The notes: a model not told the origin generated them from the letters alone. DNA of 64,000 nt from Elusimicrobiota bacterium (GCA_044221725.1 JBGAON010000005.1:143598-207597); one strand, 5' to 3'. Positions 10,071 through 60,450 are shown, counted from the stretch's first letter. A program made the numbers and translations.

Positions 10071-10099
10071 CCTGCGACCATACGAGCAGCGGAAAGTTG

Positions 10100-10152
10100 T
10101 TACAACAAATTTGCAAGTCCTTAAGATTGGCTTAAGACAGCTCTTGTCTAAT
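10100..10152 (+). promoter_or_regulatory. Conserved four-repeat operator/promoter, copy 1
   Basis: TTAC-aacaaat-TTGC-aagtcc-TTAA-gattggc-TTAA-11nt-TCTAAT, then 7 nt to the GTG start; same spacing as copies 2-4. Confidence 0.75.
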
Positions 10153-10159
10153 AGAAATT

Positions 10160-13100
10160 GTGAAAAAATCCCTCGTAAGGAGCGTTGCGGCGGCTCTATC
10201 GGTTGTTTATTTTGCAACGAACATTGCGTGGGCACACCAATCAGCCGTTGTCGAATTGGATTTCCGGTCTCACGCGACAATTTGGGCGGACCGCAAACCA
10301 ACAGAGCCGTACCCAAAGACTCCGCCAACAAAGCTCGCCGCCCTGCCTGCCAACATCAATGCGCAACTGCCCTCGATCAATCGCCAATTCTCTGCGATCA
10401 AAGAAAACGCCGCTTCGATTTCTTCCCGCATAAGTAATTCGCTTTCGGAGAAGAACGCGCAAATGCTGGCGCCGCTTTTTCGCACGCTGCCGCAAACCGC
10501 GGGCACAATTCGAAAAATTGAAGTACCGCGCGCGGAGCCGCGCGGAGTCGTCGTGCACATTCAGGATGTCCACCGAAATTTTGAAGCGCAAACGAATATC
10601 GGGAACGCCGTCGAGCAGCTGACCCGTGCGAATCTCGTTCAAGCGGTGGCGCTCGAAGGCGCGTTCGGTCCGATTGATTTGTCGTGGTACAACAATTATC
10701 CGTTTCAGGATTCGGTGAAAACCGTTGCCGACTACTTATTAAAGGAACACCGAATTTCTGGACCCATCCGTGCGGGTATGACCGCGGCGAAGAACCAGGA
10801 ACTAGGAACATCGTACATCGGTATTGACGATCCCACTCATTACGCCGCCAATGTCCGGGCCGTGCGCGCCGCAAAGACAGCCGAGACGAACATCAAAGAG
10901 GATCTCGAAAAACAAAATCGCGAGCTCGCCGCTGCGAAACTGAAATATTTCAGCGCTGCGCTAAGAGATTTCGATCGTCACGTGGAGGCTTATCGCCGCG
11001 GAAATGTTTCGTGGGGCGATCACGTGGAATATCTTTCCGACAAATCCGTAACGCGGGTTTCTCCACGCATCGACGCATTCCTTGTTGCATTAACGATGGA
11101 GAAAGAACTGAATGTTGCGGCGATCGAATCGGAGCGTGCGCGACTGCTTGAAAAGCTGGCGGGCAAGCTATCGAAGGGCGAAACGAACGAGTTGCTAGCG
11201 ATGAGCGCGGCTTTCCGTGATGGGCGCCTTAATCACGCTGACTTCTATTCGTTTTTGAAAAGATTCTGCCAACAGAAGTCCATCGACCTAGCGAGCTACC
11301 GTTCATTCGACGGGTATGTTCGTTACGTGTTGCTTTGCGAGCGTTTGGATGTGGAAGCAATTCTCGAAGAAGTGGCGACGCTCGAAAAAACAACCTATTC
11401 ATCGCTCGCACGAACAGAAAAAGAAAAGGAATTGGTGCAAACGGCGCGCGGGCTGTATTTGGCGGGGAAATTAACGGATTTTGCGCTGACGAAGGAAGAG
11501 TGGACGGAATATAGGAGTGAATTTATAACATGGGGAGGGAAAAGGCCCTTTGAAGAATTTTATAAGCAGGCCGAGCTTCGAGACTCGGCAATGGCCAATA
11601 ATCTCATCCACGTACTACGTAGCCGGTACAAAGTACCACGTACGTCTCTCAGCATCCTTGTCACCGGCGGCTTCCACTCGACCGGTATCGACCGCCAACT
11701 TGTGGACGCGGGATACACCGTCGTAACCTACATTCCGAAAATTTCGAAAGTCGACGACGTCGCGGGCTCTTCCTACCTCAGCGTGTTCACGCAGGAAAAA
11801 ACGCCGCTCGACCAACTGTTCGCGGGCGAGAAACTTTTCTTGGCCGAGAAGCCGGTTGCCTCTGCCGCAATGATGTCGTCGAGCGTGCACATGGTAAATC
11901 AAATTAATCATCGCGGCGCAGAATCTCCAGCACCATTGGATGTTCCAGCAAAAGACGTTGCCGAGACCAAGGTGAACGGTGACGAAGCGCAAATGCCGAT
12001 GAAGGGTGGTATTTTGAAAATTCGGGCGAGATCTGGTGGCTTGCTTGATATTCGATTCAACCCGTCATTGCTTCAGCGAATTGCGGGTGTAATCGCGGTG
12101 GGCGCCCTCATGTTGTTTGCTGGCGTTTTGCCCGCGCAAGATTTTGCGCAAGGTTCCCAGGGAGCGCCGGCGGCCACGGCGCAAGATGCGAATGCTGTCT
12201 CGCTTGCGTTGAAAATTACGGGCGTGTTCTTCGGCTTGTTTGCGGTGCTCCAAACCGTGATCACTGTTCAGCGCACATTCGAATGGAACCTTCGCGATTG
12301 GAAGCGCGGACAGGTGAGGCCAAGAGAGATGCTTTCCATGGCAGGCTCGTGGCTGTTCGTTGACATTTCTTTGCCCGCGATGTTCGGCACGGCGTGGATG
12401 ATTTTGCATCTTGGATACAACTTCGCGATTTCAAACATTGGGATGCGGGCGCTCCTTTTTGGAGCTGAGAAAGAATATTTCACTTTTATGGCGATGACAC
12501 TTTTCCTTGCGATCGTTCTTTTTCTGCTACGCGATCCCCGGTTGTATTCTGTCCGGCAGGAACGCGAAGGCGTGACGTCCGGGCCGGAGGGAAATAACGA
12601 CAGAGCGCATTTGCGCTATTTGGTCCCCTGGCTTTTTGCACCGATCATCGCCGGCGCGATGCCGAGCGCGATGTTGGCCCAGTCGGGCGCGCCGCCGGTG
12701 GAAAATTCGAATCGCGGTTTTTATCAAGCCGCCGCCAAGAATGCTGCGGTGGAAATTGCGCCGGAAGCTGACGCTGCTCAGCCGAAATGGAAGGAATTAA
12801 TGAACTTCGGTTTCCAATTCACGGCGACCGGTGACATTCGCGGCGGCTGGGGCAAAACCGATTTTGATTGGAACCGCACGAAAACCGAGCAGGCGAAATT
12901 GGTGGAGATGTTTAAAGGCAACGTGTACACGACGTTCGTGAATGATTTCGACCAAAAATTGAAAGACCGTGAGCTCACGGCCAAATTTCTCAAGAACCCG
13001 ACATGGCGCAAGAAAAAGATTGATGAGATGGTCGAGCTCGCAAAAGGCAGTCTCGGCGTCGGAATTGATTTTGAAAACATGTCGCGCAACAGCACGGCTG

Positions 13101-16100
13101 ATTTCAAGTTGTTCATTGAAGAGCTCGCCAAAGAACTCCACGCGAAAAATTCAAAGCTTTGTGTGATTGTCGAGCCCAAGACCGATACAAACGTCGGTGA
13201 TCGCGGACGCGCGATTGACTGGGCGCATCTCGCAAAACACGCCGACGAAGTTCAGGTGATGGCCTATTGGTACGGGCAAGGCCCCACCCGGCCCGACCAG
13301 ATTGCGCCGCTCAGTTGGATCAAGCAAATGGTCGCGCTCGCGGAAAAACAGGGACTCAAGGGAAAATTCACCGTCGCGCTCACCACATTCGGTTACGACT
13401 GGGCTTTGGATGGGTCCGGCCGGCAGGCGCTCAGCAAAACCGCGTTCTCGGAAATCGAAGCGCAGAAAGCGAATTGGAAGCGCTACGCGGACGGCGGCTC
13501 GATTTACTACGAATACACAGCGAACGACGGCAAGCAACACCGAGTTGTCACGGAAGATCTCGTCAGCATCCAACAAAAATACGAAGAGTTGAAAAAATTA
13601 CAGATCCCCGTCGTGTTGTGGGCGTTTGGTTTTGGTGACCCGGAAATTTTTAAGTGGGGTGAAAAAGCAGGTCTGTCCGTTTATCTTCCCTACTTTAGCG
13701 AGCCGGTCAAAGAGCTTTTGCGCAAACCGCAAACGCCGAAGACCGATAAGGTTGACCTGCAATTCCGCGGAAGCCCGTTTTTCCTCTTGGCATTGATCGG
13801 CCTGTTCATCGGTGCGCCGTTGTCGTTCGCGAATTCCAGTTCGGTCTCCAATTCCGCGAACGCCGGGACTCCGTCGGTTCCGGTTTTTGCTCAAGCTGGT
13901 TTGCTTAAAGAATATTGGTTCCTTCCTGTGATTGTTGGAATCGTAACTGCCGCGGTCATCTTTTTTATTTTGCGGAGCCGGTGGCCTAGCAATCCGCCGG
14001 CGACGGTTATGGAAGCGCCGACGCCGAATTACGCGTCGGACGAAGAACTTAAATCTTTCGTCGAGCGAAATCTTGCCCGATCGTATCTTGACGTGCCACG
14101 GATTTTGGTGGATGCACGACAAATAGTCGCCCCGCCTTCTGTTCAGGATCTGGTTGGTCGTCTTATTGCCGTGTGTGCTGATTTTGTTGCGACGGAACAG
14201 CGCATCGAAGACGCCGACGAAGCCGGATCAAAAATAACTGCTGTACTGAAAGCCATTCAATCCCGAGTGAAATTGAAAGTTGAAGCTCGTTACATCTCCC
14301 AACAAACGGCCGACGATTTTTGGATTACAGATGAGCAGCTTTTATCGAGAACCGCAGAATTCTTGGATTGGATGAATGATGGCCTTGCCGGCGAACGCAA
14401 AAAGCCGGCCACGATGATTCCCGAGCCAGATTTGGTATTGCCCACCGGCAATGAAGTGGGAACATCCTTCGTCGTAAGCATCGGCGGAACGAATGGTTTC
14501 TTGCAGGAAGTAACGCTGTTGGGCCACGGCGAATTTGAGAACAAAGGCAAAACGCGCGTCGATATTTTGCGCTACAAACAGGATATTTCGGGCATTTTCG
14601 ACGAATACGCCCAGGCGATTGCCGCGCGCATGGGAAACCAAAAAAAAGAGCAACGTTCGGTTGGTGTTGTTTGGGCGCATCCGGTTGAAAAGATCCGCGG
14701 GAAGGTGATCGCGCGCGGCTTGTCAAAAGGCTGGCTCGATCCGCAGAAGAAAGTTGTGGACCAGGATATTCAGCAATTGTTCAACGATGCGCTTCGACGT
14801 GCCGGTCTTGCGAACGTAACGGTCAGTATTGTCGTGAACGATACCTTTAATCCGCTGGCGGCACTGTCGTACATTCTTATTGGCAAACGCAAAAAGACCA
14901 AAGCGGCGCTTGCCGGTGCGATTTTGGGCACCGGTTCGAACGAAGCTTTCTTCGTGCCGGGATTTGGTTGGATAAACGGCGAGACCGGCGCCGATGATAT
15001 GACCAACCGCGATGGTTACGAACTATTTTCTACGCTCGAAGACAAAATTGTCGCTGCCGAAGATCCCGTCAATGAACACCGCTTTGAAAAACGTGTCGCT
15101 GGTAATTATCTCGCGAAGCTGTTTGTGCTGCGTCTCAAAGCAATCCGAAACGGAACAGGCATGTTTCGCTGGCTCGACGAAATTCCCCAATTTCGCGACG
15201 AAACATTGGACAGTTCGTTCCTGTCGTTTGTTGCGGACAAAAATATTCGGGACCTGATTTCCATTGAGCGAAAAATTCGGGAAATGTATTGGCGATCGCG
15301 CAAACATTCCCGTTTTGTTGCCAAGTTGTTGTCCCACACGGAAAAAACTTCTTTCGCGAGCGATCACGAATTGTTTGTGATGTACGAAGCCGTAAAAGCG
15401 ATTGCCGAACGATCCGCACGGCTTTTGGCCACGCATTACGCGGGTATCGCGCTGCGAAACGATCCGGAAATTAAGGAGCCGCAATGGTTCGCCGTTGAAG
15501 GCAGCGTGTTCAACAAATACCCGGGCTACAAAGCCATGGTGATGAATGCGATTGTGAAAATTGTCGGAGTGGAAAAAGCCGCCCGCATCGAATTGATCGG
15601 AGCCGAGGAAATTGCCCAAAATCTCGAAGGCGTGGGCGCTGCCATTCTCGCGATCACGGCGTACAACAAGCAGCGTGTTGCGCCACACGACGCGGTAAGA
15701 GTTTTTGAAGAGCTTCGCGCCGCGTCCGGCGGACGGCGGGTCACGGTTGTCGGAGCCAATGATTTTGCGGTGCAACATGAGGCTATTGGAAATCTGTTTA
15801 ACGTCGCGGGGCCCACGGAAATCGCTGTATTAACGGGAGGCAACTGGGCCCAAACCGGCGCGCGTGTCGAAGCGGCACCGCATACGAAAGCCATTGGAGT
15901 ATCGTCCGAAGATTTTCTGCAGTTGCTAAACATTTTCGCGGAAGCGTTCTCCAATTTGAATGGCGTGAACCAGCACATTGTTCAAGAATTCCGAGAGGCG
16001 GCGCAGCGATCGGGCGTGCTCGTGCCGAGAGAATTCTTGACTGGCCTTCACGTTACACCCGACGCGATTTACAACTCGCATCCGGCGGTCGGTGCACTGA

Positions 16101-17749
16101 ACGAGGCGCTCCAGCATCTTGCTTTACCGGCGGAGCACCCCATTCACTCTTTCGGGCCGAAAGATACGCACGTGTACTATCTGGACTTGGTTGTGCGGGA
16201 TCGTGAAGGAACTGTGCGCGTGGTACCCACCCATCGAAGCGCACCCATTATCGCGAGCGACGTCGAAATTCTCGGTATGGGACCTCGAACCATGGAAGTG
16301 TGGGCCAATATCATCGCGGAATCCGGTGGCATTATTCAGCTGGGCGCCGCACCGCACGTCGATCTGCCGACAGGCCAACATTACAGGGCGGCGGGGGTCA
16401 AAGCGCGCATGCACGATCTCGCCTCGCAAGGCCTCGTCGTTGAAGAATTCTTAGATGGAGTGACGCGCTACACATTGAAACTGCCGACAAACGCGGTCGA
16501 CTTGCGTGCGGACTCTGTTTCGACGAATTCTGGGGGCGCTGCGTCAGCGGCGGGCTATCACGGGCTTATCGTGTTTTTTACGCCGAGTCGAAAAGTTTTG
16601 ATCGCTTCCGTGCTTTTGTTGGTAACAGAAATTGGCGGACTTTTGTGGGGAAATTCCCATTCGTTGTTGCTTGGGGCCACCATCGCTGCCGCGGCTCCGT
16701 TTCATGTCGTTTTTGCGGAGCAAGGCAAAGATCCGTGGCTCGCGCGCGCCAATCAAAATGACCAGATGCTCGGTCATGTGTTGACTTGGGGGCTTTATCC
16801 GCTCGCGTTTCTTGCGATGCGCGGCTTATCGGCGATGATGTTGCCGTTGCCAGCGGTCGCTTATGTTCCTCTGGCCGCTGCGGTCGCCTATCATTTGCAA
16901 AAAGATTTTCGCTATTTCCGCCAAACGTTGAACCGCATTCGTGCTGCTGAAAAAATTGCGGCCGTGAATCACGCAATCGAAAGTTCCCCAGCGGATTCCA
17001 ACGGGAATGCGAGCGTGCAACACGTGCTCGCGAATCTTCGAGCGCGGGATCGCAAAGATGGCGGTCTCTCCAAAAATATTTCGGAACTCACGCCACATTT
17101 AACGAACAAAATTTGCACGTCACCGCTGTTGAGATGGTCGCGGATCGTCATGTTAAGCGCTGCAATGTTGGGGACGAACGGAATAAGCCAAGCGAACACC
17201 GCCAACGTGAAGCTCGACCGCGGGAGCAACATCGTCACGGTTGTGGTTATGGACGCGAGCGATGTCGAAGACAAAAAGGGAAGCCTGTTGCACGACACGC
17301 TGCGCAATATCGAAAAGCAGATTCGAGAGGGGAAGCTTGGCGCGACGGTCACCGTGGCCATCCCGGAATCGATGGTGGAAGACGCTTCCGCTCTCAGGGA
17401 AAGTGCCAAGCGATTGGCGCTTGATTTTGACGTTCCGGTCGTCGTGACGATTGACCGCGCGATAATCGGTCGAGGATTTGATCAACCGAACCGTTTCACG
17501 TTGAACCAACACTACGATGACGCTACGAGAGAAGTTGATAATCACGGTTCGCACAAGGCCGCGGAAAAAATTCGTTTCTACCAAAACAAAAATTTTGCGG
17601 GCGTGAACGTGAAAGTGGTGGCTTCGAAAGCGACGCCGTACACGGCGAATGGCGCGCTGACCCAAATTGCGCAGATGACAATTGCTGGCGTGACGATTTC
17701 TATCAGCGAAGCAATCAAGCTCGCCGAACTCGCCTACAAGATGGCGTAA
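10160..17749 (+). CDS. Giant protein 1 (2529 aa): signal peptide, conserved N-terminal domain, TM segments, GH18-like domain, hexokinase-like domain, TM module, C-terminal domain
   Basis: N-domain QDVH..EAQ, ALEG, GIDD, LTKEEW, GGFHS, YLSVFTQEKTPL (~10547-11841); GH18 GIDFE, DEVQVMAY, FGYDW, LWAFG (~12808-13641); hexokinase LPTGNE, IGGTN, VVNDT, ILGTGSN, FEKRVAGNYL, EGSVF (~14420-15650). Confidence 0.85.
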   Translation: MKKSLVRSVAAALSVVYFATNIAWAHQSAVVELDFRSHATIWADRKPTEPYPKTPPTKLAALPANINAQLPSINRQFSAIKENAASISSRISNSLSEKNAQMLAPLFRTLPQTAGTIRKIEVPRAEPRGVVVHIQDVHRNFEAQTNIGNAVEQLTRANLVQAVALEGAFGPIDLSWYNNYPFQDSVKTVADYLLKEHRISGPIRAGMTAAKNQELGTSYIGIDDPTHYAANVRAVRAAKTAETNIKEDLEKQNRELAAAKLKYFSAALRDFDRHVEAYRRGNVSWGDHVEYLSDKSVTRVSPRIDAFLVALTMEKELNVAAIESERARLLEKLAGKLSKGETNELLAMSAAFRDGRLNHADFYSFLKRFCQQKSIDLASYRSFDGYVRYVLLCERLDVEAILEEVATLEKTTYSSLARTEKEKELVQTARGLYLAGKLTDFALTKEEWTEYRSEFITWGGKRPFEEFYKQAELRDSAMANNLIHVLRSRYKVPRTSLSILVTGGFHSTGIDRQLVDAGYTVVTYIPKISKVDDVAGSSYLSVFTQEKTPLDQLFAGEKLFLAEKPVASAAMMSSSVHMVNQINHRGAESPAPLDVPAKDVAETKVNGDEAQMPMKGGILKIRARSGGLLDIRFNPSLLQRIAGVIAVGALMLFAGVLPAQDFAQGSQGAPAATAQDANAVSLALKITGVFFGLFAVLQTVITVQRTFEWNLRDWKRGQVRPREMLSMAGSWLFVDISLPAMFGTAWMILHLGYNFAISNIGMRALLFGAEKEYFTFMAMTLFLAIVLFLLRDPRLYSVRQEREGVTSGPEGNNDRAHLRYLVPWLFAPIIAGAMPSAMLAQSGAPPVENSNRGFYQAAAKNAAVEIAPEADAAQPKWKELMNFGFQFTATGDIRGGWGKTDFDWNRTKTEQAKLVEMFKGNVYTTFVNDFDQKLKDRELTAKFLKNPTWRKKKIDEMVELAKGSLGVGIDFENMSRNSTADFKLFIEELAKELHAKNSKLCVIVEPKTDTNVGDRGRAIDWAHLAKHADEVQVMAYWYGQGPTRPDQIAPLSWIKQMVALAEKQGLKGKFTVALTTFGYDWALDGSGRQALSKTAFSEIEAQKANWKRYADGGSIYYEYTANDGKQHRVVTEDLVSIQQKYEELKKLQIPVVLWAFGFGDPEIFKWGEKAGLSVYLPYFSEPVKELLRKPQTPKTDKVDLQFRGSPFFLLALIGLFIGAPLSFANSSSVSNSANAGTPSVPVFAQAGLLKEYWFLPVIVGIVTAAVIFFILRSRWPSNPPATVMEAPTPNYASDEELKSFVERNLARSYLDVPRILVDARQIVAPPSVQDLVGRLIAVCADFVATEQRIEDADEAGSKITAVLKAIQSRVKLKVEARYISQQTADDFWITDEQLLSRTAEFLDWMNDGLAGERKKPATMIPEPDLVLPTGNEVGTSFVVSIGGTNGFLQEVTLLGHGEFENKGKTRVDILRYKQDISGIFDEYAQAIAARMGNQKKEQRSVGVVWAHPVEKIRGKVIARGLSKGWLDPQKKVVDQDIQQLFNDALRRAGLANVTVSIVVNDTFNPLAALSYILIGKRKKTKAALAGAILGTGSNEAFFVPGFGWINGETGADDMTNRDGYELFSTLEDKIVAAEDPVNEHRFEKRVAGNYLAKLFVLRLKAIRNGTGMFRWLDEIPQFRDETLDSSFLSFVADKNIRDLISIERKIREMYWRSRKHSRFVAKLLSHTEKTSFASDHELFVMYEAVKAIAERSARLLATHYAGIALRNDPEIKEPQWFAVEGSVFNKYPGYKAMVMNAIVKIVGVEKAARIELIGAEEIAQNLEGVGAAILAITAYNKQRVAPHDAVRVFEELRAASGGRRVTVVGANDFAVQHEAIGNLFNVAGPTEIAVLTGGNWAQTGARVEAAPHTKAIGVSSEDFLQLLNIFAEAFSNLNGVNQHIVQEFREAAQRSGVLVPREFLTGLHVTPDAIYNSHPAVGALNEALQHLALPAEHPIHSFGPKDTHVYYLDLVVRDREGTVRVVPTHRSAPIIASDVEILGMGPRTMEVWANIIAESGGIIQLGAAPHVDLPTGQHYRAAGVKARMHDLASQGLVVEEFLDGVTRYTLKLPTNAVDLRADSVSTNSGGAASAAGYHGLIVFFTPSRKVLIASVLLLVTEIGGLLWGNSHSLLLGATIAAAAPFHVVFAEQGKDPWLARANQNDQMLGHVLTWGLYPLAFLAMRGLSAMMLPLPAVAYVPLAAAVAYHLQKDFRYFRQTLNRIRAAEKIAAVNHAIESSPADSNGNASVQHVLANLRARDRKDGGLSKNISELTPHLTNKICTSPLLRWSRIVMLSAAMLGTNGISQANTANVKLDRGSNIVTVVVMDASDVEDKKGSLLHDTLRNIEKQIREGKLGATVTVAIPESMVEDASALRESAKRLALDFDVPVVVTIDRAIIGRGFDQPNRFTLNQHYDDATREVDNHGSHKAAEKIRFYQNKNFAGVNVKVVASKATPYTANGALTQIAQMTIAGVTISISEAIKLAELAYKMA

Positions 17750-17827
17750 CACAATCCTAGTCGCTTTTTTCCGTCGATCTTTAAGCAAACACATCTATAA
17801 ATCAGTTCGTTTTTCGACGGAATTCGT

Positions 17828-17880
17828 TTACTGAAAATTTACTACTTCTTAAGGCAAACTTAATCCACTTCCGATAGCCT
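17828..17880 (+). promoter_or_regulatory. Conserved four-repeat operator/promoter, copy 2
   Basis: TTAC-tgaaaat-TTAC-tacttc-TTAA-ggcaaac-TTAA-11nt-TAGCCT; followed by a short leader with GGAGG (17901-17905) before TTG 17910. Confidence 0.8.
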
Positions 17881-17909
17881 GTCTTATAAGAATTCGGGGG
17901 GGAGGCCTT

Positions 17910-20900
17910 TTGATTCAATTCCGACGCGTATCCACGATGATATTTGCGCCAAAAACAATCGCGATTTTGTTGGTTTCGGTTCTCACATACGAAACTGTTG
18001 GTACACCTCTAGCAGAAGCCAGTCAATACAGCTCGCTGTGGTCCGAACGACGCAAAACTTCCTCTGCCACTCAAAACGAAAACGGCCAGAATCTTCTCGC
18101 TTCGCTTCCGTCCCAGTCTCTTCTGAAGCAAATGCCGTCGGTGAAAGCGGCGCTTCCGTCCTCCGTCGTAACAACACCGATCTCGAATGAAGCAAGAAAA
18201 ATTCCGCCGGTGTTGCGCGCGCTCGTGGCGGCTGTTCCCCAGAATCAGGGCATCGTGAGAGAAATTTATGCTCCTCTCTCATCGAGCAACGAACCGATTG
18301 TGTTGGCGCAAGACGTGCACATGAATTCGGAAGCGCAAATGAATTTGGCCGGGGTCATCCAAAATATTGTGCGCGAAAACAAAATTGATGTGATCGGAGT
18401 TGAAGGAGCGTTTGCGCCGTTCGATTTTGCTCTCGCACGCAAAAGCGGTTCAACGGAATCGCGCACACAATTGGCCAAGGCTTTTATGGACAAAAAACTC
18501 ATGGGCGCTGCTTCCTACATTGGTCTCGTGAACGATTCGCTACCGCCCATCGTCGGTGTCGACGATGAGAAACACTACGATGCGAACGTGCTTGCGTATT
18601 TGACGATCCGGCCGATGAAAAAGAAGACGCAGAAAGACCTTCAGAAGCTCAAGCGAAACTTGGATGAACGAAAGGCACAGGAATTCTCGAAAGAAATGCT
18701 CGCGTTCGACGCGTTGCGCAGCGGTTACCACGAAGGAACAATCCCGTTTGGTGTGTATGTAAAAAAGCTTTCGGCGCTCAGCTATCAGCTTGTTGATAGT
18801 TCGTCTTCGCCGGACAGCGGAAAGCGGATCGCTGAAAGCTCTCTCGCCGTTGAGCAGTTCATCGCCGCGTACGAAATGGAAAAGTCACTCGACTTTGCGC
18901 GCGTCGAAGCCGAACGCCGACGCGTGATCGAGAAACTCGCATCGGTGCTCAAAGGCGAGGATGTCACGACGCTCATCAATCACAGCGTTGCGTACAAGAA
19001 CGGACAGATCGGTTTTGGAACTTACTACCGTTTCCTTAAAAATTTGTGCGAAAGCAATGGCGTGCGCCTAAGCGACACGACCGCGTTCGATAACTACGTT
19101 CGTTATGTCTTGCTGTCCGACGGTATCAAAGCGGATCAATTGTTCGCAGAAATCACGAACATAGAAGACCGGGTGACAAAGGCGCTCGCACGCACGCCCG
19201 TCGAAAAGCAGTTGGCTGACGAAGCCGAGCATCTCGCGCTGGCGAACAAGCTCATTGAGTTTGAGTTGACGCCGGAGGAATGGGCCAAGTATTCGTCATC
19301 CGGGCATGATTTTGGCCGGGATCTAGGTGCTCTTGAGGATTTGACCGCTTTTGAAAATTTCTACCGTGAAGCCGATATCCGCAGCCACCGCATGCTCTCG
19401 AATTTGCTGGGACGAAATCGCCAGCGGGCATCGGTTCTGCTCACCGGCGGTTTTCACACCTCGCAAATGACGTCGTTGCTCAAAGAGAAGAAAATACCCT
19501 ACATCGTCGTGTCGCCGAAGCTCACAAAAGTCTCTGAGGACGAATCGGGCAGCGCGTACCTAAGCGAATTCTCACGGGAAAAAACTCCGCTTGAGAAAAT
19601 GTTCAGCGGTTCAAAACTTTTTGTTCTGCCAAAAACACAAATGGCCGGTTCGGCGGGCGGCCTCACAACATTCAAAGCGTTTGTGGTTTTCTTGATCGGT
19701 ATTGCCGGCCTATCCACGGGAAAAACCCGGGCGGATGTGGATTTGACCATCAACAATGTTCCGGTGCACGCGGTGGTTCAGCGCGGCGATATCCGCGGCG
19801 CTGTCGAAACCGTGGAGTTATCAGAGAAGGGTACCCCACAAACCTATTCTCTTTTGTATCCGTCGCTTTCAGCGCGCGGCATGGATTTCTTTTTTAATCG
19901 CGTCGCTTCACCGAAACGGCTCGTCATGGCCTTGGGCGGCATTTTAAGCGCTGTATTGCTGTCGCCCGCTCCGGCTCAAGCGGCTTTGGCCCCAAGGCTC
20001 TATGGCGTGGCCGCCGAAACGTTGTGGGGGGCCGCCGGTGGCGCGTTAATTTTTTCGCTTATCATCGGCAATTTTTTGTGGACCCGTTTCAATACACGGG
20101 AACCAAGAGTGAGCCCGCAACCCGACAATCGTTTTCGTCCAGGCCTCGACCAATTGGAGCAAAAAGAAACCCCGGCGAACCTGAACGTGTGGGTGGATCC
20201 GAATGGTGTTGTGCGCCCCGATGTTTTAACCGGGGGATTTAGCGATCAAGAATCAAAATCCGGTTTGCCGAGCGTGGAAGTTCGATTGGCCGATGGTTTC
20301 CATTTCTCGAACGGGGATCTCGTGCGCGTTTCGCTCAGTGGTCCGGCGGGTTCGCAATCTTCCGGCTGGGTTCCAGCGGCCGATCGCATGGTTTTCCCCT
20401 ACCACGGCGAAACGGGCATGGGGCTGCGCGCCGTGCATGCGGATGGAACAGACGCCGTCGCAACTGCCGTGCCGGGAAGTTTCGCAACGGCAATCCCCGT
20501 CTCGGAAGCGGCGCCTGGCAATCTCGGTTCGTTCGATTTGTTTACGGTGCGCACGCCTCCCGAAGAACCGGTTCAAGACCGAATCAGCGTGAACAACCAA
20601 AGCGTGAACGGTGACCGCGTGCAATTGCAGTATTCGTTACCGTCCGACATGTTGGTTCGGTTCTCGCACGTAAACGCCGGAGCCAACGGCCAAACCGAAC
20701 TTGGGTCGGGAACCGACTTTTTACCGGCGACACAGTTTAAAGACGGATACGCGATTCTCATTGCGAACGGACCGCTGAGAGCCGGGAATTCTGCTGATAT
20801 CGGATTTGCGGCGTATCGGTTGGATGCCTCGGGAAATTACGTCGAAGTGAAATTTCAGCCGGGGGAACCCGATTTGCCAATAACGGCCACGCTGGCGAAC

Positions 20901-44498: not shown

Positions 44499-45546
44499 AA
44501 GTTCGCATAGTAAGTGCAACAGTAAGTAGTTGAGGAGTTGGTTATCCCTTTAAACTGAGGGATACCATGAAATACAAGCACTTAACCGACGGCGAACGAG
44601 AAACGTTGTCGTATATGAGAGCTTGTGGCAAATCGATACGAGAGGCAGCGTTCTATTTGAATCGAGCGCCCAGTACGATTGCCAGAGAAATACGGCGCAA
44701 TAAGAGTCGAGCACGTTATCGGTCCCATCTGGCCCATCGGGCTGCTATAGATCGACGCCATCAGACGCTCCGACGTCAACATCGGTTTAAAGCTGATCCT
44801 CAGCTGAGAGATCGTGTTATCGAATGGCTTAAGGCAGGATGGTCCCCTGAGATTATCGCAGGCCGACTGAAGCGTGAAGCCCATGGCAAGTCCGTAATAC
44901 ATCATGAGACCATCTATCGTTGGATTTATCGATACGATCGATCTCTCATCAAGTGTCTCGTCCGATCACATCCTCGTCGGTATCGTCGTCATCAACGGCG
45001 CTGGCCGAATCGAATTATCCCTCGACGGATTTCAATTCTCCAGCGCCCCGATTTCATTAACCAGCGCAAACAACCAGGGCATTGGGAATCTGACTTGGTG
45101 TGGGGATCTGGACGCGCTGCTCTGCAAGTGCTTGTCGAACGAAAAACCCGTTTCGTCTTTATTCGCAGAACCCGCAATAAATCCGCTCAAGCCAATTACG
45201 ATGCGCTCTCTGAAGCATTGGAACAAATCCCAACTTCTTTACGGCGCACCATCACGTATGATAATGGAAGCGAGAACACACTGCATTGTGAACTCAATGA
45301 CCGTTTCCAACTGCAATCGTTCTTCTGTCAGCCGTATCACGCCTGGGAAAAGGGAACCGTAGAAAACACCAACGGTCTGATCCGTCGATACTTCCCCAAA
45401 CGCACCAACTTCGATACCATCTCAGTTCACCAAATCGAAGACGTTCAACGTCGCCTTAACAACAGACCTAGAAAATGTCTTCGCTTTCAAACAGCCGGGG
45501 AAGCCTATTCTTCCACCTTCCGTTGCACTTAAAACGCGAATTCAGC
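44496..45546 (+). mobile_element. IS30-family insertion sequence, 1051 bp
   Basis: 26-bp imperfect inverted repeats TAGAAGTTCGCATAGTAAGTGCAACA (44496-44521) and CGTTGCACTTAAAACGCGAATTCAGC (45521-45546); flanking 3-bp direct repeat GCG at 44493-44495 and 45547-45549. Confidence 0.88.
44567..45532 (+). CDS. IS30-family transposase, 321 aa
   Basis: YKHLT..ER, STIAREIRRN HTH, WSPEIIAG, HETIYRWIY, GHWESDLV, LVERKTR, TITYDNGSE, WEKGTVENTNGLIRRYFPK. Confidence 0.96.
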   Translation: MKYKHLTDGERETLSYMRACGKSIREAAFYLNRAPSTIAREIRRNKSRARYRSHLAHRAAIDRRHQTLRRQHRFKADPQLRDRVIEWLKAGWSPEIIAGRLKREAHGKSVIHHETIYRWIYRYDRSLIKCLVRSHPRRYRRHQRRWPNRIIPRRISILQRPDFINQRKQPGHWESDLVWGSGRAALQVLVERKTRFVFIRRTRNKSAQANYDALSEALEQIPTSLRRTITYDNGSENTLHCELNDRFQLQSFFCQPYHAWEKGTVENTNGLIRRYFPKRTNFDTISVHQIEDVQRRLNNRPRKCLRFQTAGEAYSSTFRCT

Positions 45547-45555
45547 GCGTAAGAT

Positions 45556-45608
45556 TTACATTTTGTTTACGCGTTCTTAAGGAATTCTTAATCCGCGGCG
45601 ATTAGTAT
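45556..45608 (+). promoter_or_regulatory. Conserved four-repeat operator/promoter, copy 3
   Basis: TTAC-attttgt-TTAC-gcgttc-TTAA-ggaattc-TTAA-11nt-TAGTAT, then 6 nt to ATG 45615. Confidence 0.85.
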
Positions 45609-45614
45609 TTCTTT

Positions 45615-51542: not shown

Positions 51543-51580
51543 AATCGCGTCGTTTCTTCGTCGCAGAAAATAGCGTTCCG

Positions 51581-51633
51581 TTACAGAAAATTTACGCGTT
51601 CTTAAGGCGAACTTAAGACAGCATTCGTATAGT
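51581..51633 (+). promoter_or_regulatory. Conserved four-repeat operator/promoter, copy 4
   Basis: TTAC-agaaaat-TTAC-gcgttc-TTAA-ggcgaac-TTAA-11nt-TATAGT, then 6 nt to ATG 51640. Confidence 0.85.
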
Positions 51634-51639
51634 GGTTCC

Positions 51640-57600: not shown

Positions 57601-60450
57601 CAATTCAAGATTAATGGCCGAACCTACTCAGGAAAGATCCGTGGACAAAAATCGGTTGTACCGGAACAAGATTTGAAACCGGATTCGGGCGTGCCGAACG
57701 GTGAGGACTACGAGTTCTTTGTCGATGGACCCAACAACTTTGTTATCGAAAGACCGAACAAAGATCCTCGCGGACGGTTTGTTCCGCTTCTCAAGAAAAA
57801 GGGTACCAATGAGATTGTTACGCCCACCGATGAACAGGTGTCGTTGATCGAGCCAGACACGGGCGGCGCTTTGGTGATTGATGAGAAAGGAAATTTCGTC
57901 ATTGTCGACAAATTTCAGTACGCGGGCACCGACGTTGCTGACCGTATCGACAACGACCGTTACTACAATACAAATCAGGTTCAGTTTAAAATCGCTGACA
58001 TGCTGCGTTTCTTTGGTCTTATGGACGCAAACGGATCAACGGAGAGATTTGAAGCGATGTCCCCTCAGATGCGGCTCGACACGGTTTTAAAAGCCACGCG
58101 GGATCTTCCGTATTCGATGGAAGACATTGATTCCGGGGCCGCGCTCTTGCCGGTGCGAATTCTTGCCACGGTCTTGAAAAAAATGAAAGGCGGCTTTGTG
58201 GTCATTGACCCCTTCGCCGAGGCCACGCCGTTTAACGGCTATCTCGGTTTCAAAGATTGGAACGATCACATCTTAAAGGCCACTCCGATTAAAAGGATTT
58301 TTACTCACATTGTTGAAGCGCTCGCGAAAAGAGGACGTTTCCCCGCTGTCAGAGGGGAAATAACGGTCGATAACTTCATCCCGACGTTTACTCCAATCTA
58401 CGCGGCGGCCATGGATCATGTTGCGCATCACTTGAACGGCATAGACGATCGGGCCGATTACGATTGGATGGCTTCATCGGTTGGCACCAAGGAGAAGCCG
58501 GAACCAACGCCGGACACCGTGTTGCAGTTGACGCGATCGGGAATTCTGAACCTCTACAAAAAAGACGTTCGTCGGTATTCTTTCCTACGGGAAAACATGA
58601 ATATTCACAAGGGAAAAGAACAGCAGGACAGATACGTCACGTGGAAAGTGCGGCAAATTTTTATGCGCCTGTTCGCAATGAAAAAGTTCAAACTGGTTTT
58701 TGAGAAATACGGAATTCAAACCGGAGTTTCGAAGGAAGATCCGTACGTGCGTTTGTTGCTCTACACACGCATCGATGATGAACTTGCGGCCGAAGTTGGT
58801 GGTTCGATTGAAAGACTTCATCTTCAGGGCGGATCGACGGATTTGGATGAGGAAGACCTTGAGCTTGGCGAATATAGCCCGCTGGAATCTTCATTGGATG
58901 TGCGACCGGTTCATTCCGTGAGTTTTTTACGTCCTTCCCGTACCGCCCCTTTTGTTGAGGAGCTGACGGTGCTCATTTATGGCCCCATCTTCGCGACCAC
59001 ATTTGTGTTCATCCAAAATTCATTCGTCTCGTTTGGAATAACGCTCGCTGTGTTGATTTTTATCGCGGGATTTTTAGCGATGATACACACCGAGGTTTTC
59101 TTGCCCAATACGGACGGGACTTACGCGCGTACGGCCGCACGCCCGTCCGACAAAATAAAAATTTTTGGTTTGTTGTTCTCTTTCGCGATTCCATACTTGT
59201 TTATCTTAACCGTCGTGAGCTTCTATATTAATGTTCCACCGAATCTCAGCTTTATTGAATCGCAACGGGCGATGCGCTCGTTGCCAATCGCGGCGATCGT
59301 TTTCGCCGGTCTGCCAGCGCTGTTGCACTTGGCGTATGTGCGGCGTGTTATTCCCTTCTTTTTGCATCGCTTCAATATTCGTTTGCCGTTCGCAACGATC
59401 GCTGCAGAGCCACTGACCGACCGGGATCAAATCAAGAGAATGAGTAGTGAGCTTACCCCCGAGGCCCAAAGCCTTTTCGTCTCGCTGCTTTTAAAATCAA
59501 TGCCGCCGATGGAGCAGCTCGGTTTGGAAAAAATGGTGGAGCCGAAGATCGAATCTTTAACGATGATGCCCATTAATCGTGTTTGGAACAGTGATGAGCG
59601 GATTGCCGAACGAACGGACGCTGCGATAGCCGTCTATGCTGTTCTCTACAAAGCAGAAATTTATCGGCACGTGAATCATTTGGCGCGTCAAATTTCCGTC
59701 GGAGCGAAGGTGGACGCCAACATTATCAACCGAATTGCGTCGCTCACGGGCACGCTAAATACTTTGGGCAGAGGAGTAAATTCCGAACGGGATCACGCCT
59801 TGCAGGCTCAGCTCGCAACCTTGGGCGCTCTCGCGAGGGCTGCAGAGATTTCCCAATTCGATGTCAATGTCGTGCGAGGATTGCTCGAGAAAACAACGAA
59901 AGAGGCCCCGTTGGCGGCGGATGGCACCGTGAAACCGGCCGATGTAGAAACCAATAGAAATGATTACGGTATCTTTTCGTACCCTGACTTGAGTGGAAAC
60001 GCCGACTCCAAAGGCGCTCAGACGGCGCTCGCTGAAATTGGCCAGTTCGTTAAGGCGGCTTCGTTGCCCGGGGCGGAACGGAAATTTGGTTACGTGATTA
60101 TCACGTTGCGTTCGATTGAGGAAAAGGTAGCGGCATTGAATTTCCTCAGTGAAAGAATTCCTGGCGCCATGTTTAAAGAAGGGGATAATATTCGCTTCGA
60201 AATCCAGGCCCGCACGAATCCTCAACCGTTTATTGCCGACCTTAAAAACAAAGGACTGAACAAGATGTTCGGGTATCCGATCGGAAGCGCCAATTTCGAA
60301 ACGAACTGGGATATTTCCGGCTTATCATCAGAAGACTTGGCGCTTTTCTCTCTGCGTCTAATCGGCCTCGAAAGTGGGGAATTGTTTAACCTGGACGACC
60401 ACTTCCGCCAAGCCGAAAAGAACATCCAGCTCGCCGAACAGGGCGCTTAG
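51640..60450 (+). CDS. Giant protein 4 (2936 aa): conserved N-terminal domain, TM segments, GT5 glycogen-synthase-like domain, TM module, UDPGP-family pyrophosphorylase-like domain, TM module, C-terminal domain
   Basis: N-domain QDVHMNLEAQ..YLGSFIRDRTPLE (~51937-53220); GlgA motifs YIASE..HTGGIG, HVNDWQT, HNAVYQG, KGFDL, PSIFEPSGL (~54166-55890); UDPGP motifs LLGGAGSR, PRGPG, ISNGEDLGA, GGALV, YNTNQ (~56940-58270). Confidence 0.87.
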   Translation: MRFSLRKGSAAFIAGSLFITQVLTNPMLVQTCFAQNTGFGLRASADIWTERSNQIARLKSPQADIFPTRAADNAFKPFFQSVNPFARVGETHIENNGGPTVLLLQDVHMNLEAQKNIGEVLLRTPKNSVIGVEAAVGPFDFSKFRSYPEPKILANIASVLLRENYISAISWMGLTAKGSLPTIVGVDDSSLYVKNVDAFKNTIAIKADRLSSIETALQKLAHEKADLFSAEEKALDALITNYEAGNVTLAAYIQSLEQSVSMDAFPSLKTLSAALQLEARLDQKQAEQERERLVRKISATDSAALQQLTALSISHGAGEMEATTFYSEFRSILNAHHISLAAYPHFSTYVEYAALADGIKQERIFKEIQDLTKAAIGKIARREQTKQLFKQGRTLFLAKKLVNFELTPEEWKEYQVGPGLRHSRTTASVPSGTNLEAFFDFYRYAEARNEKMVNNLLNARGNSNTIVLLAGGFHSAGIRALLRARGVSYAVLTPRISQDNLGNGSAYLGSFIRDRTPLEKLFYGEKLTVAAADTILGPSNPIAPGRRWLPAAAISLTAVLAAAYFATGANPNLELATLSAWIAGISGGVAILLSAQDRRAHLNINGTEIEAGAELSAPAYRTIKDVPGLGNVGWNTHRSFGTVIKGIALVVFGIAFIKLLTNVFEPFVKARDVIAVGHSPSFPMRTGFFRWGFLLTIGVAFLSMVTTTRAYFHRFAPEKSFGDLPVEKLNSMSDVELWNEIKKNGYIRIHERLPYLPHGGSRVEGRLWNYFLTHSVDELVPDFQKMDAWTVAQVLQNENIMNHEHRLAKPHKIMMALSHEQRSDVSDNMKLKYYRQLMDPTRVKKVVYIASEVRGIFHTGGIGVVADSFPRAMQGFGHDVSQILPYYEGVGIEEEISKNVAAGIWTKKELFQKINVPMDGHIVTATVVQIDRRDLPTLYLIQNPEYFGRYTMGKDKRGKLNPYFPANLPNSHASFTEREMLTLERFIFFAKACMMAMPVLNLNGNGEAPDVVHVNDWQTTLLAPWLLYLRATTPVEFQHDAEANPYMRGMNPATFSRLKTYFQKTQTVSTQHNAVYQGLFSESARYENTFDRLKDNSWELFKKTGLPWDPFFMQTDQKTGVTEEKQPFSLRLHGQFNFSLAMKSADASYTVSEAHATELAEGAYPELPRFYYSLTMDERFTGINNAPDVELRNPRNLKGIIAYGVTDVEEKKPLNKIALLEKVGLASGNKSDDEAKFVVGVVARAEKEKGFDLILEALPEVLQGHEHDTVVVVLASGNPEYERRMRELQASYPRNIKYIDKFLPELEPMITVGSDSLLVPSIFEPSGLTHYDAMIAGTLPIVAPSGGLNVVRDPSEGIEAAIGFMMRSKTSIELSKKIEEARQMFLNDKSSWNRMIDNAMNTDFSWPDSVDKVMDLYERAEFFARIQKNNKISIKSPRGKRPRPQLVLNFIFNLAQNLEQRYADPISGHDLYKNSFWGAPKYEAGFLFALLAGTFAGFAVVLPVTWMALAAATITTMVTFLLLHPIRAGPSKGSPSLLEYRSLGILFIFLPFLLIIGPLALVGLSYIPNDRTILRGSILAASLAIGAISTMPGHAWWNNHSPKPLTAAHASYGALDKYLTGTAVRELLAFRGMQFRYDESDFQYFATNPRIVGFDRKTQKIVLQPLFNFLDPIPPANSPAAERKVIVDRNMESILRLSPPINQQGQINREEYHRVINDAFEGKLDKVEKYRVIDKIASHPDRIFDATAVSAREHQISFVRLIERYERGEIAIFSLLGGAGSRVIQKSKKIKESITKAILSTIGIQIPAIGLGTGPKHPLFLTIFKHSMLVTVKAVALVFNTQLGVNDHNIMAAVQDDPHMTRAISEKVEILKSPGSGIPMQRVADKKTKKPGGVLWTNKNGKEIPDSDVNVREGNAITRPRGPGAFSVLIAAAVDGTLLKLHRDGRLYGLISNGEDLGAMPNEMAANFMEENNLPITFFLAERDVKYQFKINGRTYSGKIRGQKSVVPEQDLKPDSGVPNGEDYEFFVDGPNNFVIERPNKDPRGRFVPLLKKKGTNEIVTPTDEQVSLIEPDTGGALVIDEKGNFVIVDKFQYAGTDVADRIDNDRYYNTNQVQFKIADMLRFFGLMDANGSTERFEAMSPQMRLDTVLKATRDLPYSMEDIDSGAALLPVRILATVLKKMKGGFVVIDPFAEATPFNGYLGFKDWNDHILKATPIKRIFTHIVEALAKRGRFPAVRGEITVDNFIPTFTPIYAAAMDHVAHHLNGIDDRADYDWMASSVGTKEKPEPTPDTVLQLTRSGILNLYKKDVRRYSFLRENMNIHKGKEQQDRYVTWKVRQIFMRLFAMKKFKLVFEKYGIQTGVSKEDPYVRLLLYTRIDDELAAEVGGSIERLHLQGGSTDLDEEDLELGEYSPLESSLDVRPVHSVSFLRPSRTAPFVEELTVLIYGPIFATTFVFIQNSFVSFGITLAVLIFIAGFLAMIHTEVFLPNTDGTYARTAARPSDKIKIFGLLFSFAIPYLFILTVVSFYINVPPNLSFIESQRAMRSLPIAAIVFAGLPALLHLAYVRRVIPFFLHRFNIRLPFATIAAEPLTDRDQIKRMSSELTPEAQSLFVSLLLKSMPPMEQLGLEKMVEPKIESLTMMPINRVWNSDERIAERTDAAIAVYAVLYKAEIYRHVNHLARQISVGAKVDANIINRIASLTGTLNTLGRGVNSERDHALQAQLATLGALARAAEISQFDVNVVRGLLEKTTKEAPLAADGTVKPADVETNRNDYGIFSYPDLSGNADSKGAQTALAEIGQFVKAASLPGAERKFGYVIITLRSIEEKVAALNFLSERIPGAMFKEGDNIRFEIQARTNPQPFIADLKNKGLNKMFGYPIGSANFETNWDISGLSSEDLALFSLRLIGLESGELFNLDDHFRQAEKNIQLAEQGA

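Follow-up and report, generated by a model that had tools for sequence, protein, structure and literature searches.

Four adjacent giant genes of an Elusimicrobiota bacterium and a family of modular proteins with a TIKI-like head, variable cargo and a common upstream element

The constant parts of the four genes and their family

The window analysed here, a stretch of 64,000 nt from an Elusimicrobiota bacterium (GCA_044221725.1, JBGAON010000005.1:143598-207597), contains four adjacent giant genes, named gene 1 to gene 4, which have like ends and like upstream DNA and unrelated middles. All four are intact, uninterrupted frames on the + strand with a total of 16,302 aa, and the intergenic gaps between genes 1/2, 2/3 and 3/4 are 161 nt, 1117 nt and 98 nt. 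The N-terminal domain that they share (the head) opens 26 open reading frames (ORFs) of this genome, which we treat as one family. The main features are given below in window coordinates; a prefix C1 to C5 gives the contig of the genome, and bits of the putative promoter motif are scores of a position weight matrix (PWM).

10100-10135 (C2:153697-153732), + strand: promoter motif of gene 1, TTAC-N6-TTTGC-N6-TTAA-N7-TTAA, 43.3 bits
10160-17749, + strand: gene 1, 2529 aa, hydrophobic clusters at aa 635-840, 1200-1276 and 2135-2244
10160-12019, + strand: head of gene 1, with signal, W-x-D-R, TIKI/ChaN/Ere-like alpha/beta core and ~265-aa helical insert
17828-17863, + strand: promoter motif of gene 2, 49.3 bits
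17910-44498, + strand: gene 2, 8862 aa, WSER and head to aa ~620, six hydrophobic clusters, Ala-ended tail
45556-45591, + strand: promoter motif of gene 3, 42.2 bits
45615-51542, + strand: gene 3, 1975 aa, hydrophobic clusters at aa 588-636 and 1593-1709
51581-51616, + strand: promoter motif of gene 4, 50.6 bits
51640-60450, + strand: gene 4, 2936 aa
17693-17746, 44442-44495, 51486-51539 and 60394-60447, + strand: tails of genes 1 to 4, the last 18 aa, amphipathic and Ala-ended (position statistics of 135 C-termini)

The N-terminus of each protein is composed of a basic and then hydrophobic signal-like segment of Sec type, and just past it, 42-48 residues from the N-terminus, sits the motif W-x-[DE]-R (IWADR, LWSER, VWSER and IWTER in genes 1 to 4). 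Within the first 90 aa, 15 of the 26 family members have this motif, compared with 14 of the 1260 other ORFs that reach 300 aa or more. The heads occupy the first ~560-620 residues and showed 29-31% identity among the four. All four proteins have Ala as last residue, and the C-terminal likeness is limited to the last ~18-30 residues and forms no domain. Between the ends, hydrophobic clusters split each of the proteins into pieces, and BLASTP among the 26 paralogues with the heads masked revealed just four similar pairs, none of them within genes 1-4.

In a tree of the 26 heads, the window genes were located in three separately supported clades: gene 3 and gene 4 with member L018 (support 95/88), gene 2 with L013 and L015 (99/93), and gene 1 within a 14-member clade (99/93). 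Therefore, the array did not arise by recent tandem duplication. It is the only tight cluster of family members in the genome, in which two other pairs lie ~6 kb apart.

Through a search with the head profile, the head was found at the N-terminus in every one of the 26 ORFs of the genome (2.82 Mb, five contigs). These ORFs have 775-8862 aa each and 60,316 aa summed, or 6.4% of the genome. Among 201 sampled genomes of the phylum, 62 contained the head (E<=1e-10), from 32 of 77 genera; the positive genomes often had 20-50 first-look candidates each, with open frames up to ~11,800 aa, and one family of small genomes in the sample had none (0 of 58). All 79 loci from named records belonged to metagenome-assembled genomes (MAGs) of Elusimicrobiota, including Candidatus Obscuribacterium magneticum. 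Among 1.84 billion cluster representatives, the head matched 9,846 at E<=1e-3, 8,505 at E<=1e-10 and 6,591 at E<=1e-30. Among the 150 best representatives, the match begins within the first ~35 residues except for two (at 154 and 215), and 133 have at least 1000 aa (median of the 150, 2158); none of the 17 shorter ones is Ala-ended, as would be seen for truncated records. The source names of the relatives are "hypothetical protein" or are taken from the cargo.

The structure of the head was predicted with AlphaFold2 (AF2) for gene 1 aa 100-575 on an alignment of 93 heads, with a predicted local distance difference test score (pLDDT) of 89 and a predicted template modelling score (pTM) of 0.87. 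The model contains an alpha/beta core interrupted by a ~265-residue all-helical insert. The core has the central parallel sheet flanked by helices of the TIKI/ChaN/Ere fold, a likeness of moderate strength. The first five ranks in VIA-align were ChaN (2g5g, Z 8.9), EreC (6xcq, 8.4), 2qgm (8.3), 2rad (8.3) and HopBA1 (5t09, 7.7), with 165-196 residues aligned at a root-mean-square deviation of 4.2-6.7; all five are of the TIKI superfamily, 2qgm and 2rad being of the Bcr135/136 type, and PMT gave Z 6.0. Foldseek with the head model against PDB gave nothing at E<=1e-3 (EreC at rank 3, E 0.05), and the head against PDB by sequence gave chance-level rows only. In Pfam scans of the four window proteins the head had no match, PF04187 (Cofac_haem_bdg) included. 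This same family was seen in four of the 22 non-window paralogues, in L029 with 30.4 bits against a cut-off of 27.7 and in L016, L028 and L026 below it.

Five residues, D37, H39, E67, R375 and H407 in the model numbering (D-x-H, E, R, H), are invariant across the 93 heads. According to excerpts of PMC6254334, ChaN, EreC, the Bcr135/136-type proteins, HopBA1 and PMT are structures of the TIKI superfamily, and TIKI enzymes have a catalytic set of two His and two Glu with a conserved Arg. The order and spacing of the head residues fit the set in those excerpts, with Asp in place of the first Glu. We take the head to be a TIKI-fold domain in which hydrolase-type residues are kept, and by its model it is a new branch of the superfamily. 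At the head end (gene 1 aa ~533-560) there is a highly conserved stretch, S-x-Y-L-S-x-F-x-x-E-K-T-P-L-x-K-L-F-x-G-E-K-L-F-L, whose positions Y440, L441, F444, P450, L451 and L460 are conserved at >=90% of the 93 heads (model numbering). In the model this stretch falls to a pLDDT of less than 50 at residues 434-448 and 456-463 (gene 1 aa 533-547 and 555-562), and it may be considered a candidate linear docking or cleavage motif.

The tail is the second constant part. Ala is the last residue in 21 of the 26 members, whereas 149 of 1286 background ORFs (>=300 aa) have it there. It also ends 115 of 179 relatives (fragments included) and 24 of 33 complete ORFs in other MAGs. The last ~16 residues have helix-like hydrophobic positions at -15, -11, -8, -5 and -4, and R/Q at -7. 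A position-specific scoring matrix trained on 109 tails from other genomes alone and scored over 2,176 ORFs of this genome placed members at 1-7, 9-12, 15, 16, 18 and 19, that is 15 in the top 19, with genes 1, 3, 4 and 2 at places 4, 6, 7 and 18. When the last residue was left out, 14 members were still in the top 24. A conserved C-terminal domain was dropped as a candidate: phmmer/hmmsearch iterations with the last 285 aa against the 135 C-termini retrieved the queries only.

The third constant part is a 36-nt element, TTAC-N6-TTTAC-N6-TTAA-N7-TTAA, which lies 24-47 nt ahead of each window start codon; in gene 1, a -10-like box comes after it, near the GTG start codon. The family-wide consensus is gTTACaaaanaTTTAC-N6-TTAAg-N5-cTTAAtcc, with TAnAAT ~8 nt further on and the start codon mostly 6-8 nt later. 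Its four boxes, (G/T)TTAC twice and then CTTAA twice, are spaced by 10-11 bp and end ~10 bp ahead of the -10-like box. The strict pattern was found at 15 sites of the genome, 13 of them directly ahead of family genes, and at no site in five shuffled genomes. The PWM, built from these 15 strict sites and used with a threshold of >=14 bits, gave 39 sites genome-wide and lay just upstream of 24 of the 26 members. For other MAGs, a PWM site was detected <=500 nt upstream of the head in 50 of 66 loci against 0 of 66 windows inside genes.

In activator-dependent promoters of the PhoB/OmpR type, tandem direct repeats replace the -35 box. By analogy, the boxes look like a promoter dependent on an OmpR/PhoB-type activator, and transcripts set by this -10 box would be leaderless. 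Another possible reading is that of two -35/-10 pairs which overlap and have 16-nt spacers, as in extracytoplasmic function (ECF)-type promoters. No sigma-70 consensus promoter was found in the intergenic regions of genes 1/2 and 3/4, and the insertion sequence (IS) region between genes 2 and 3 had two promoter-like sites, no more than shuffled controls. One weak hairpin, at 51535-51550, was found between the genes.

The motif was also observed ahead of other genes. A HAMP-HisKA-HATPase histidine kinase (L115, C2:23207-24763, 18.9 bits) has it and is a candidate for a part of the regulatory circuit. So do a TPR protein directly after member L029 (L113, C2:130474-132303, 24.8 bits) and a UPF0004/radical-SAM protein after member L028 (L112, C3:793681-794916, 47.3 bits). 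The top promoter score of the genome, 53.4 bits, belongs to an 8369-aa ORF (C5:256705-281814; L116, L117) with a family-like signal segment and tail (...KSQA, rank 8 of 2,176) and no TIKI head, which looks like a head-less variant of the chassis. The genome also has other giants without the head, of 18,006, 13,689, 8,766, 8,021 and 7,987 aa (C2:219210-273230, C3:407319-448388 and others). Several of these share another C-terminal pattern (...G-x-Y-x-Y ... V-V-x-R/K), which is probably another sorting signal.

The window stretch is present in bioreactor, wastewater and sludge metagenomes of nine studies. An independent wastewater DNA run covered the region 10000-29999 in 29 of 30 bins, and 51 of its 52 pieces showed >=99% identity; three metatranscriptome libraries of another study covered 21-25 of the 30 bins. 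The pieces from the DNA and RNA runs are short contigs which do not bridge long distances.

An earlier note on this DNA, made by a model from the sequence alone, described four giants with a constant chassis and variable cargo. The signal-like N-terminus, W-x-[DE]-R, the shared head, the Ala-ended helix and the common upstream motif were all confirmed in genes 1-4, and head-masked BLASTP and hydropathy bore out that the middles are unrelated and split by hydrophobic clusters. The description of chassis and cargo was right and far more general (26 paralogues, 62 of 201 genomes). The four genes as a system stood in so far as their marks are real; they do not stand alone, the same head opening 26 ORFs in the genome. 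The co-regulation ascribed to them is read from the shared motif only, and it would concern the whole family. That the chassis has no named family agrees with the source names. The note would have given up the idea if the head profile matched mainly stand-alone proteins or a family of fixed architecture, or if the ORFs were assembly chimeras; the matches are not stand-alone (133 of 150 have >=1000 aa, with the head N-terminal), the architectures are not fixed, and chimeras were not borne out by the independent DNA run (29 of 30 bins at >=99%, in short contigs). The Omnitrophota-type setting it named did not hold: the organism is one of the Elusimicrobiota, as are all 79 named-record loci.

The variable bodies and their cargo

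The modules recognised in the window proteins, and one soluble stretch of gene 2, are as follows.

Gene 1 aa 943-1141: GH18 domain, PF00704 41.5 bits, above the cut-off
Gene 1 aa 1381-1832: hexokinase domains, PF00349 70.7 bits and PF03727 79 bits, above the cut-offs
Gene 2 aa 5690-6870 (34977-38519, + strand): soluble stretch between two multi-helix hydrophobic clusters
Gene 3 aa 687-1156: alpha-glucan phosphorylase module, PF00343 51.2 bits (cut-off 27)
Gene 4 aa 845-1420: GlgA-like glycogen/starch synthase module, PF08323 104.6 bits (cut-off 22.7)

Gene 1 matched glucokinase (1e-15) and YdhD-type GH18 (5e-13) among PDB sequences, and its hexokinase part had no other BLAST homologue in its own genome. 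The phosphorylase module of gene 3 scored 103 bits with TIGR02094, under the cut-off of 191.7, and showed 41% identity over 596 columns with a free 569-aa phosphorylase paralogue of the genome. In gene 4, the GT1 C-terminal domain (PF00534, 45.5 bits, cut-off 26.4) and the GT5 catalytic domain are also present, and the PDB sequence matches were starch and glycogen synthases (1e-26 to 1e-21). Its module scored 236 bits with TIGR02095, under the whole-protein cut-off of 328, and is therefore a diverged paralogue and not an equivalog. Further on in gene 4, aa 1600-2450 was placed by ESM Atlas (0.93) beside UDP-glucose pyrophosphorylase (PF01704) clusters, and we take this UDPGP-like stretch as a lead only.

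Gene 2 is the largest and the least readable of the four. Beyond its head, its two halves gave no Pfam match at E<=0.01, ten pieces of ~980 aa gave just non-credible sub-threshold rows at E<=1, and phmmer of the two halves against PDB found no match outside the head. For aa 5690-6870, ESM Atlas gave 0.90 (179 of 256 features) to cellulose-synthase-like GT2 and glucan synthases. An alignment of six sequences over aa ~6150-6870 revealed an invariant D, ED and R-[KF]-[WFY]-x-G, which we presume to resemble the motifs of processive GT2. Processive GT2 enzymes have D, DxD, xED and QxxRW motifs and a fold set among transmembrane helices. An AF2 model of aa 6150-6870 on the six-row alignment had a pLDDT of 35.7 and was unusable. 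As a lead only, the stretch looks like a processive GT2 of the cellulose- or glucan-synthase type.

By these sequence matches, the glucose/glucan theme of the window is firm for genes 1, 3 and 4 and tentative for gene 2. The "glucan-enzyme cargo" of the earlier note thus stood for the former through Pfam and NCBIfam, and gene 2 is a language-model lead only. Carbohydrate metabolism as payload was right for the window cluster and wrong for the family, whose cargo is composed of varied enzymes and regulators. In the own genome the paralogues contain PP2C with FHA; HD with adenylate kinase and dehydroquinate synthase; 2-hydroxyacid dehydrogenase; PRK/uridine kinase; WD40 (two members); adenylate kinase; GGDEF; sigma-70 r2/r4 with Ser/Thr kinase; and metallo-beta-lactamase/beta-CASP nuclease. 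Ten of the 22 non-window paralogues gave no family match past the head, and L018 gave a sub-threshold Metallophos row only. In other genomes the cargo includes TPR, inositol monophosphatase, NUDIX, GT1, PEP-utilising domains, low-molecular-weight phosphatase, cytidine deaminase, SNF2, PfkB, radical SAM, aldo-keto reductase, YvcK and RelA/SpoT-type HD.

Free copies of several of these enzymes were found in the genome. A free adk frame of 229 aa scored 162.8 bits against 59.8 in the giant, and a free glgA frame of 485 aa scored 274.9 against 84.5 bits. That the giants are the sole copies of essential enzymes was rejected, as free adk, glgA and phosphorylase are present. In five related genomes, the best matches of the phosphorylase and GlgA modules were free ORFs of 490-672 aa (5 of 5), and the query of GH18 with hexokinase matched just one ORF, of 381 aa, in one of the five. 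With these module queries, the window genes were not found as giants in the five genomes. Judged in this way, the modules across the family are extra, diverged copies of ordinary cytoplasmic enzymes and regulators. From the free enzymes among the best matches in the relatives, we conclude that the cargo is quickly exchanged and comes from ordinary genes. In member L020 (C5:197522-203413, aa 812-963 and 1225-1473), an ECF-like sigma module with regions 2 and 4 is set between hydrophobic clusters, and a Ser/Thr kinase domain is also present. This member was considered as a conserved regulator and rejected, its sigma region matching only free ORFs of ~280 aa in the five relatives.

Hydrophobic segments past residue 560 were found in 113 of 115 complete-looking relatives, with a median of 6 and up to 27, and among the 115 their number rises with protein length (r = 0.69). 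In member L025, the head is followed by ~5 helices and GGDEF.

Within 4 kb of the 26 members, no family of neighbouring genes recurs beyond pairs except the IS30 transposase (three members), and no secretion, chaperone or immunity-like gene recurs beside them. The element in the window lies between genes 2 and 3.

44567-45532, + strand: IS30-family transposase ORF, 321 aa, HTH_38 (PF13936, 53.5 bits) and rve (PF00665, 35.5 bits)

The IS ends at ~45545, 10 nt ahead of the promoter motif of gene 3, and a second copy of the 321-aa transposase lies ahead of member L024. An IS30 element or end (...GAATTCAG) is located 7-10 nt upstream of the first TTAC box at all five genome sites matching the IS-end pattern (window 44567-45545, C1:244467-245445, C3:310961, C3:449431 and C4:616252). 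This suggests a target preference of IS30 for the family promoter region, but the count cannot be taken as independent, since the pattern was derived from the same sites.

Just downstream of gene 4 we found an Omp85/POTRA outer-membrane protein (537 aa, 61402-63015); a paralogue (542 aa, C5:147833-149461) adjoins member L023, and such a neighbour was seen for these two of the 26 members only. The upstream flank contains ORFs at 116-3895, 4151-5104, 5013-6353 (- strand), 6345-8162 and 8110-8655, among which are a class II ribonucleotide reductase carrying a TSCPD domain, two proteins with a CarboxypepD_reg domain, a transposase of the Mutator family (- strand) and a pilin-like protein whose N-terminus has a methylation motif.

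What the family may do

Considering the constant head, tail and promoter element together with the hydrophobic bodies, we tentatively read the family as polytopic membrane proteins which hold enzyme modules under a common control through head and tail, with slightly more doubt than belief. All members would be made under one common transcriptional control and would reside, polytopic and with the head outside, in the cytoplasmic membrane of the producer. The enzyme modules would be held at the membrane on alternating sides. The head, which is likely to lie outside the cytoplasm and likely to be an active hydrolase or ligand site, would form with the tail a common handle for regulation, processing or turnover. 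For the window, the modules would be GH18 with hexokinase, a possible processive glucan synthase, an alpha-glucan phosphorylase, and a GlgA-like synthase with a possible UDP-glucose pyrophosphorylase, together a membrane-bound glucose/glucan set.

Several findings weigh against this. Topology is the chief weakness of every model: the reading from hydropathy and the positive-inside rule contradicts itself, the loop preceding the first body helix of gene 1 is K/R-rich, and the two clusters of gene 3 imply opposite sides for its phosphorylase. Members L028 and L030 have no hydrophobic segment past the signal, and the P-loop kinase-like module of L028 would be without ATP if outside the cytoplasm. 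The Z values of 8-9 for the head are just moderate and Foldseek gave no PDB match at the threshold used; nothing in the modelled structure is evidence for the head acting as sensor, protease or anchor. Free enzyme copies exist, and therefore the giants are not required for core metabolism. The GlgA-like and phosphorylase modules score below the whole-protein cut-offs of NCBIfam, and gene 2 has no sequence-level identification in Pfam or PDB and no usable AF2 model. As for expression, the RNA contigs are too short for starts, strand or full-length transcripts, and DNA carry-over is possible. In an RNA library, one contig (17833-18107) runs across both the putative promoter of gene 2 and its start codon; it may stem from transcription continuing out of gene 1, from carried-over DNA, or from a start that lies upstream of the one proposed here.

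The giants might also be polyproteins, in which the TIKI-type head, signal peptidase or both cut at membrane-adjacent junctions and free or anchor the modules. We consider this unlikely, though of the alternatives it survives best. The TIKI fold includes proteases, Tiki and RRSP (excerpts of PMC6254334), and the catalytic-type residues are invariant in the 93 heads. The conserved stretch of low confidence at the head end has the look expected of a docking or cleavage motif in the model, and several internal hydrophobic segments of genes 1 and 3, read by eye, end with small-x-small ahead of a soluble module. However, this A-x-A pattern may have arisen by chance, no conserved junction motif was found, the bodies share no similarity, and many TIKI-fold proteins are esterases or binding proteins, such as ChaN and Ere.

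Relatives of the ChaN and PrgY type bind small ligands or peptides, and control is typically exerted at hexokinase, glycogen synthase and phosphorylase. Both fit a rather unlikely second alternative, transmembrane sensor-effectors in which an extracytoplasmic head senses or cleaves a ligand and steers cytoplasmic modules, one signal giving many outputs. The signalling cargo (GGDEF, Ser/Thr kinase, PP2C with FHA, ECF-like sigma and HD, with RelA/SpoT-type HD in relatives) and the layout of L025, head, ~5 helices and GGDEF, are of this kind. Nevertheless, no HAMP, PAS or DHp was seen between head and outputs in Pfam scans, the bodies have thousands of residues with several membrane crossings, and much of the cargo is non-enzymatic (TPR, WD40 and large unknown regions).

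Delivery was one of the uses that the earlier note held possible, by analogy with polymorphic toxins. In such a reading, the ends would traffic, the clusters would insert in a host or prey membrane, and the modules would act in the target. Constant ends with a variable middle are found here, the domains include ones common in eukaryotes and effectors (hexokinase PF00349/PF03727, WD40, PP2C, Ser/Thr kinase, SNF2), and the effectors HopBA1, PMT and RRSP have the TIKI fold (VIA-align; excerpts of PMC6254334). L028, a signal with a P-loop kinase-like module and no further hydrophobic segment, adds to this, and the signal-only members L028 and L030 fit delivery better than tethering. The giant proteins of these phyla are loosely tied to host-associated or predatory life in excerpts of PMC11573180 and PMC12057145. 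We nonetheless hold delivery to be improbable, and the analogy of the note did not stand: the variable part is internal and the cargo not toxin-like, no secretion, chaperone or immunity gene recurs beside the 26 members, and strongly hydrophobic segments occur in 113 of 115 relatives, up to 27 in one protein. Moreover, the apparent synthase-like module of gene 2 between multi-helix clusters suggests the own membrane of the producer, and a genome has 20-50 first-look candidates, each with its own promoter.

That the giant ORFs are artefacts, assembly chimeras or decaying pseudogenes, is extremely improbable: the source genome is metagenome-derived and gene 2 has no recognisable domain past the head, but the ORFs run without a break for 1975-8862 aa, 62 of 201 genomes have this architecture, the conservation of promoter, head and tail extends across genera, and the sequence was seen at >=99% in 29 of 30 bins of the independent DNA run and also in RNA libraries.

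Returning to the membrane-held proteins under common control, we might speculate on a wider picture, doubtful as it is at present: many Elusimicrobiota would have one regulon of ~20-50 polytopic giants per genome, capturing duplicated enzymes and regulators and matured or controlled through an active TIKI head and the Ala tail, as cellular polyproteins or "enzyme racks". The family takes up ~6% of a small genome and contains copies of ordinary enzymes, which leads to testable questions: on which side the modules lie, whether the proteins are cut, what the head binds or cleaves, and which regulator acts at the promoter. If the modules are active, the four window genes would tie glucose/glucan metabolism physically to the membrane, and processing of the proteins would make them cellular polyproteins. 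Should such a system of racks or polyproteins be true, it would be a way of organising metabolism and signalling undescribed in bacteria.

Comparison with known systems

Tiki and PrgY are membrane-tethered with the domain outside the cell. The TIKI/TraB-PrgY/ChaN/erythromycin-esterase superfamily has the same alpha/beta core as the family head, and the acid-x-His, Glu, Arg and His of the head may correspond to its catalytic set. The head differs by its ~265-aa insert, by Asp for the first Glu, by heading proteins of 775-8862 aa, and by its 26 copies per genome. The upstream element is alike with PhoB/OmpR-type promoters in having direct repeats one helical turn apart that end ~10 bp before a -10-like box.

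Polymorphic toxin systems have trafficking-type ends, quickly exchanged cargo and many paralogues, and the conserved ends, swapped cargo and many paralogues of the family resemble these features. In contrast, the family has an internal variable part, a conserved extreme C-terminus, housekeeping-type cargo and polytopic proteins. A variable C-terminal toxin with an adjacent immunity gene was not found among the 26 members and their neighbours, nor did Pfam scans reveal an N-terminal domain of a known secretion route (type V, VI or VII secretion systems and others).

MARTX toxins are also giant, with constant ends and internal exchangeable enzyme modules, and their RRSP module has the TIKI fold (excerpts of PMC6254334). 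No RTX-type repeats, cysteine-protease domain or type I secretion genes were found in Pfam scans of genes 1-4 and the window flanks. In the family, unlike in MARTX, TIKI is the constant head and not cargo, and multi-helix hydrophobic clusters stand between the modules.

According to excerpts of bioRxiv 10.1101/2023.11.21.568195 and PMC11573180, Elusimicrobiota are enriched in proteins of >5,000-10,000 aa without assigned function, and the giant genes of Omnitrophota and PVC-group phyla are likewise very long ORFs with transmembrane helices. The shared head, tail and promoter are not described in those excerpts, neither "Tiki" nor "polyprotein" occurs in the main text of bioRxiv 10.1101/2023.11.21.568195, and most members of the family, with 1,000-4,000 aa, are below the thresholds of these papers. 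Giants of 18,006 and 13,689 aa without the family head are present in the same genome. A literature search, with supplements and subscription journals outside its scope, gave no description of the family. Compared with these systems, the family is one of modular giant envelope proteins with constant ends, none of its three marks having been described so far in the literature searched, and it defines one concrete family behind many Elusimicrobiota giants, which can be searched for by head profile, tail profile and promoter motif.

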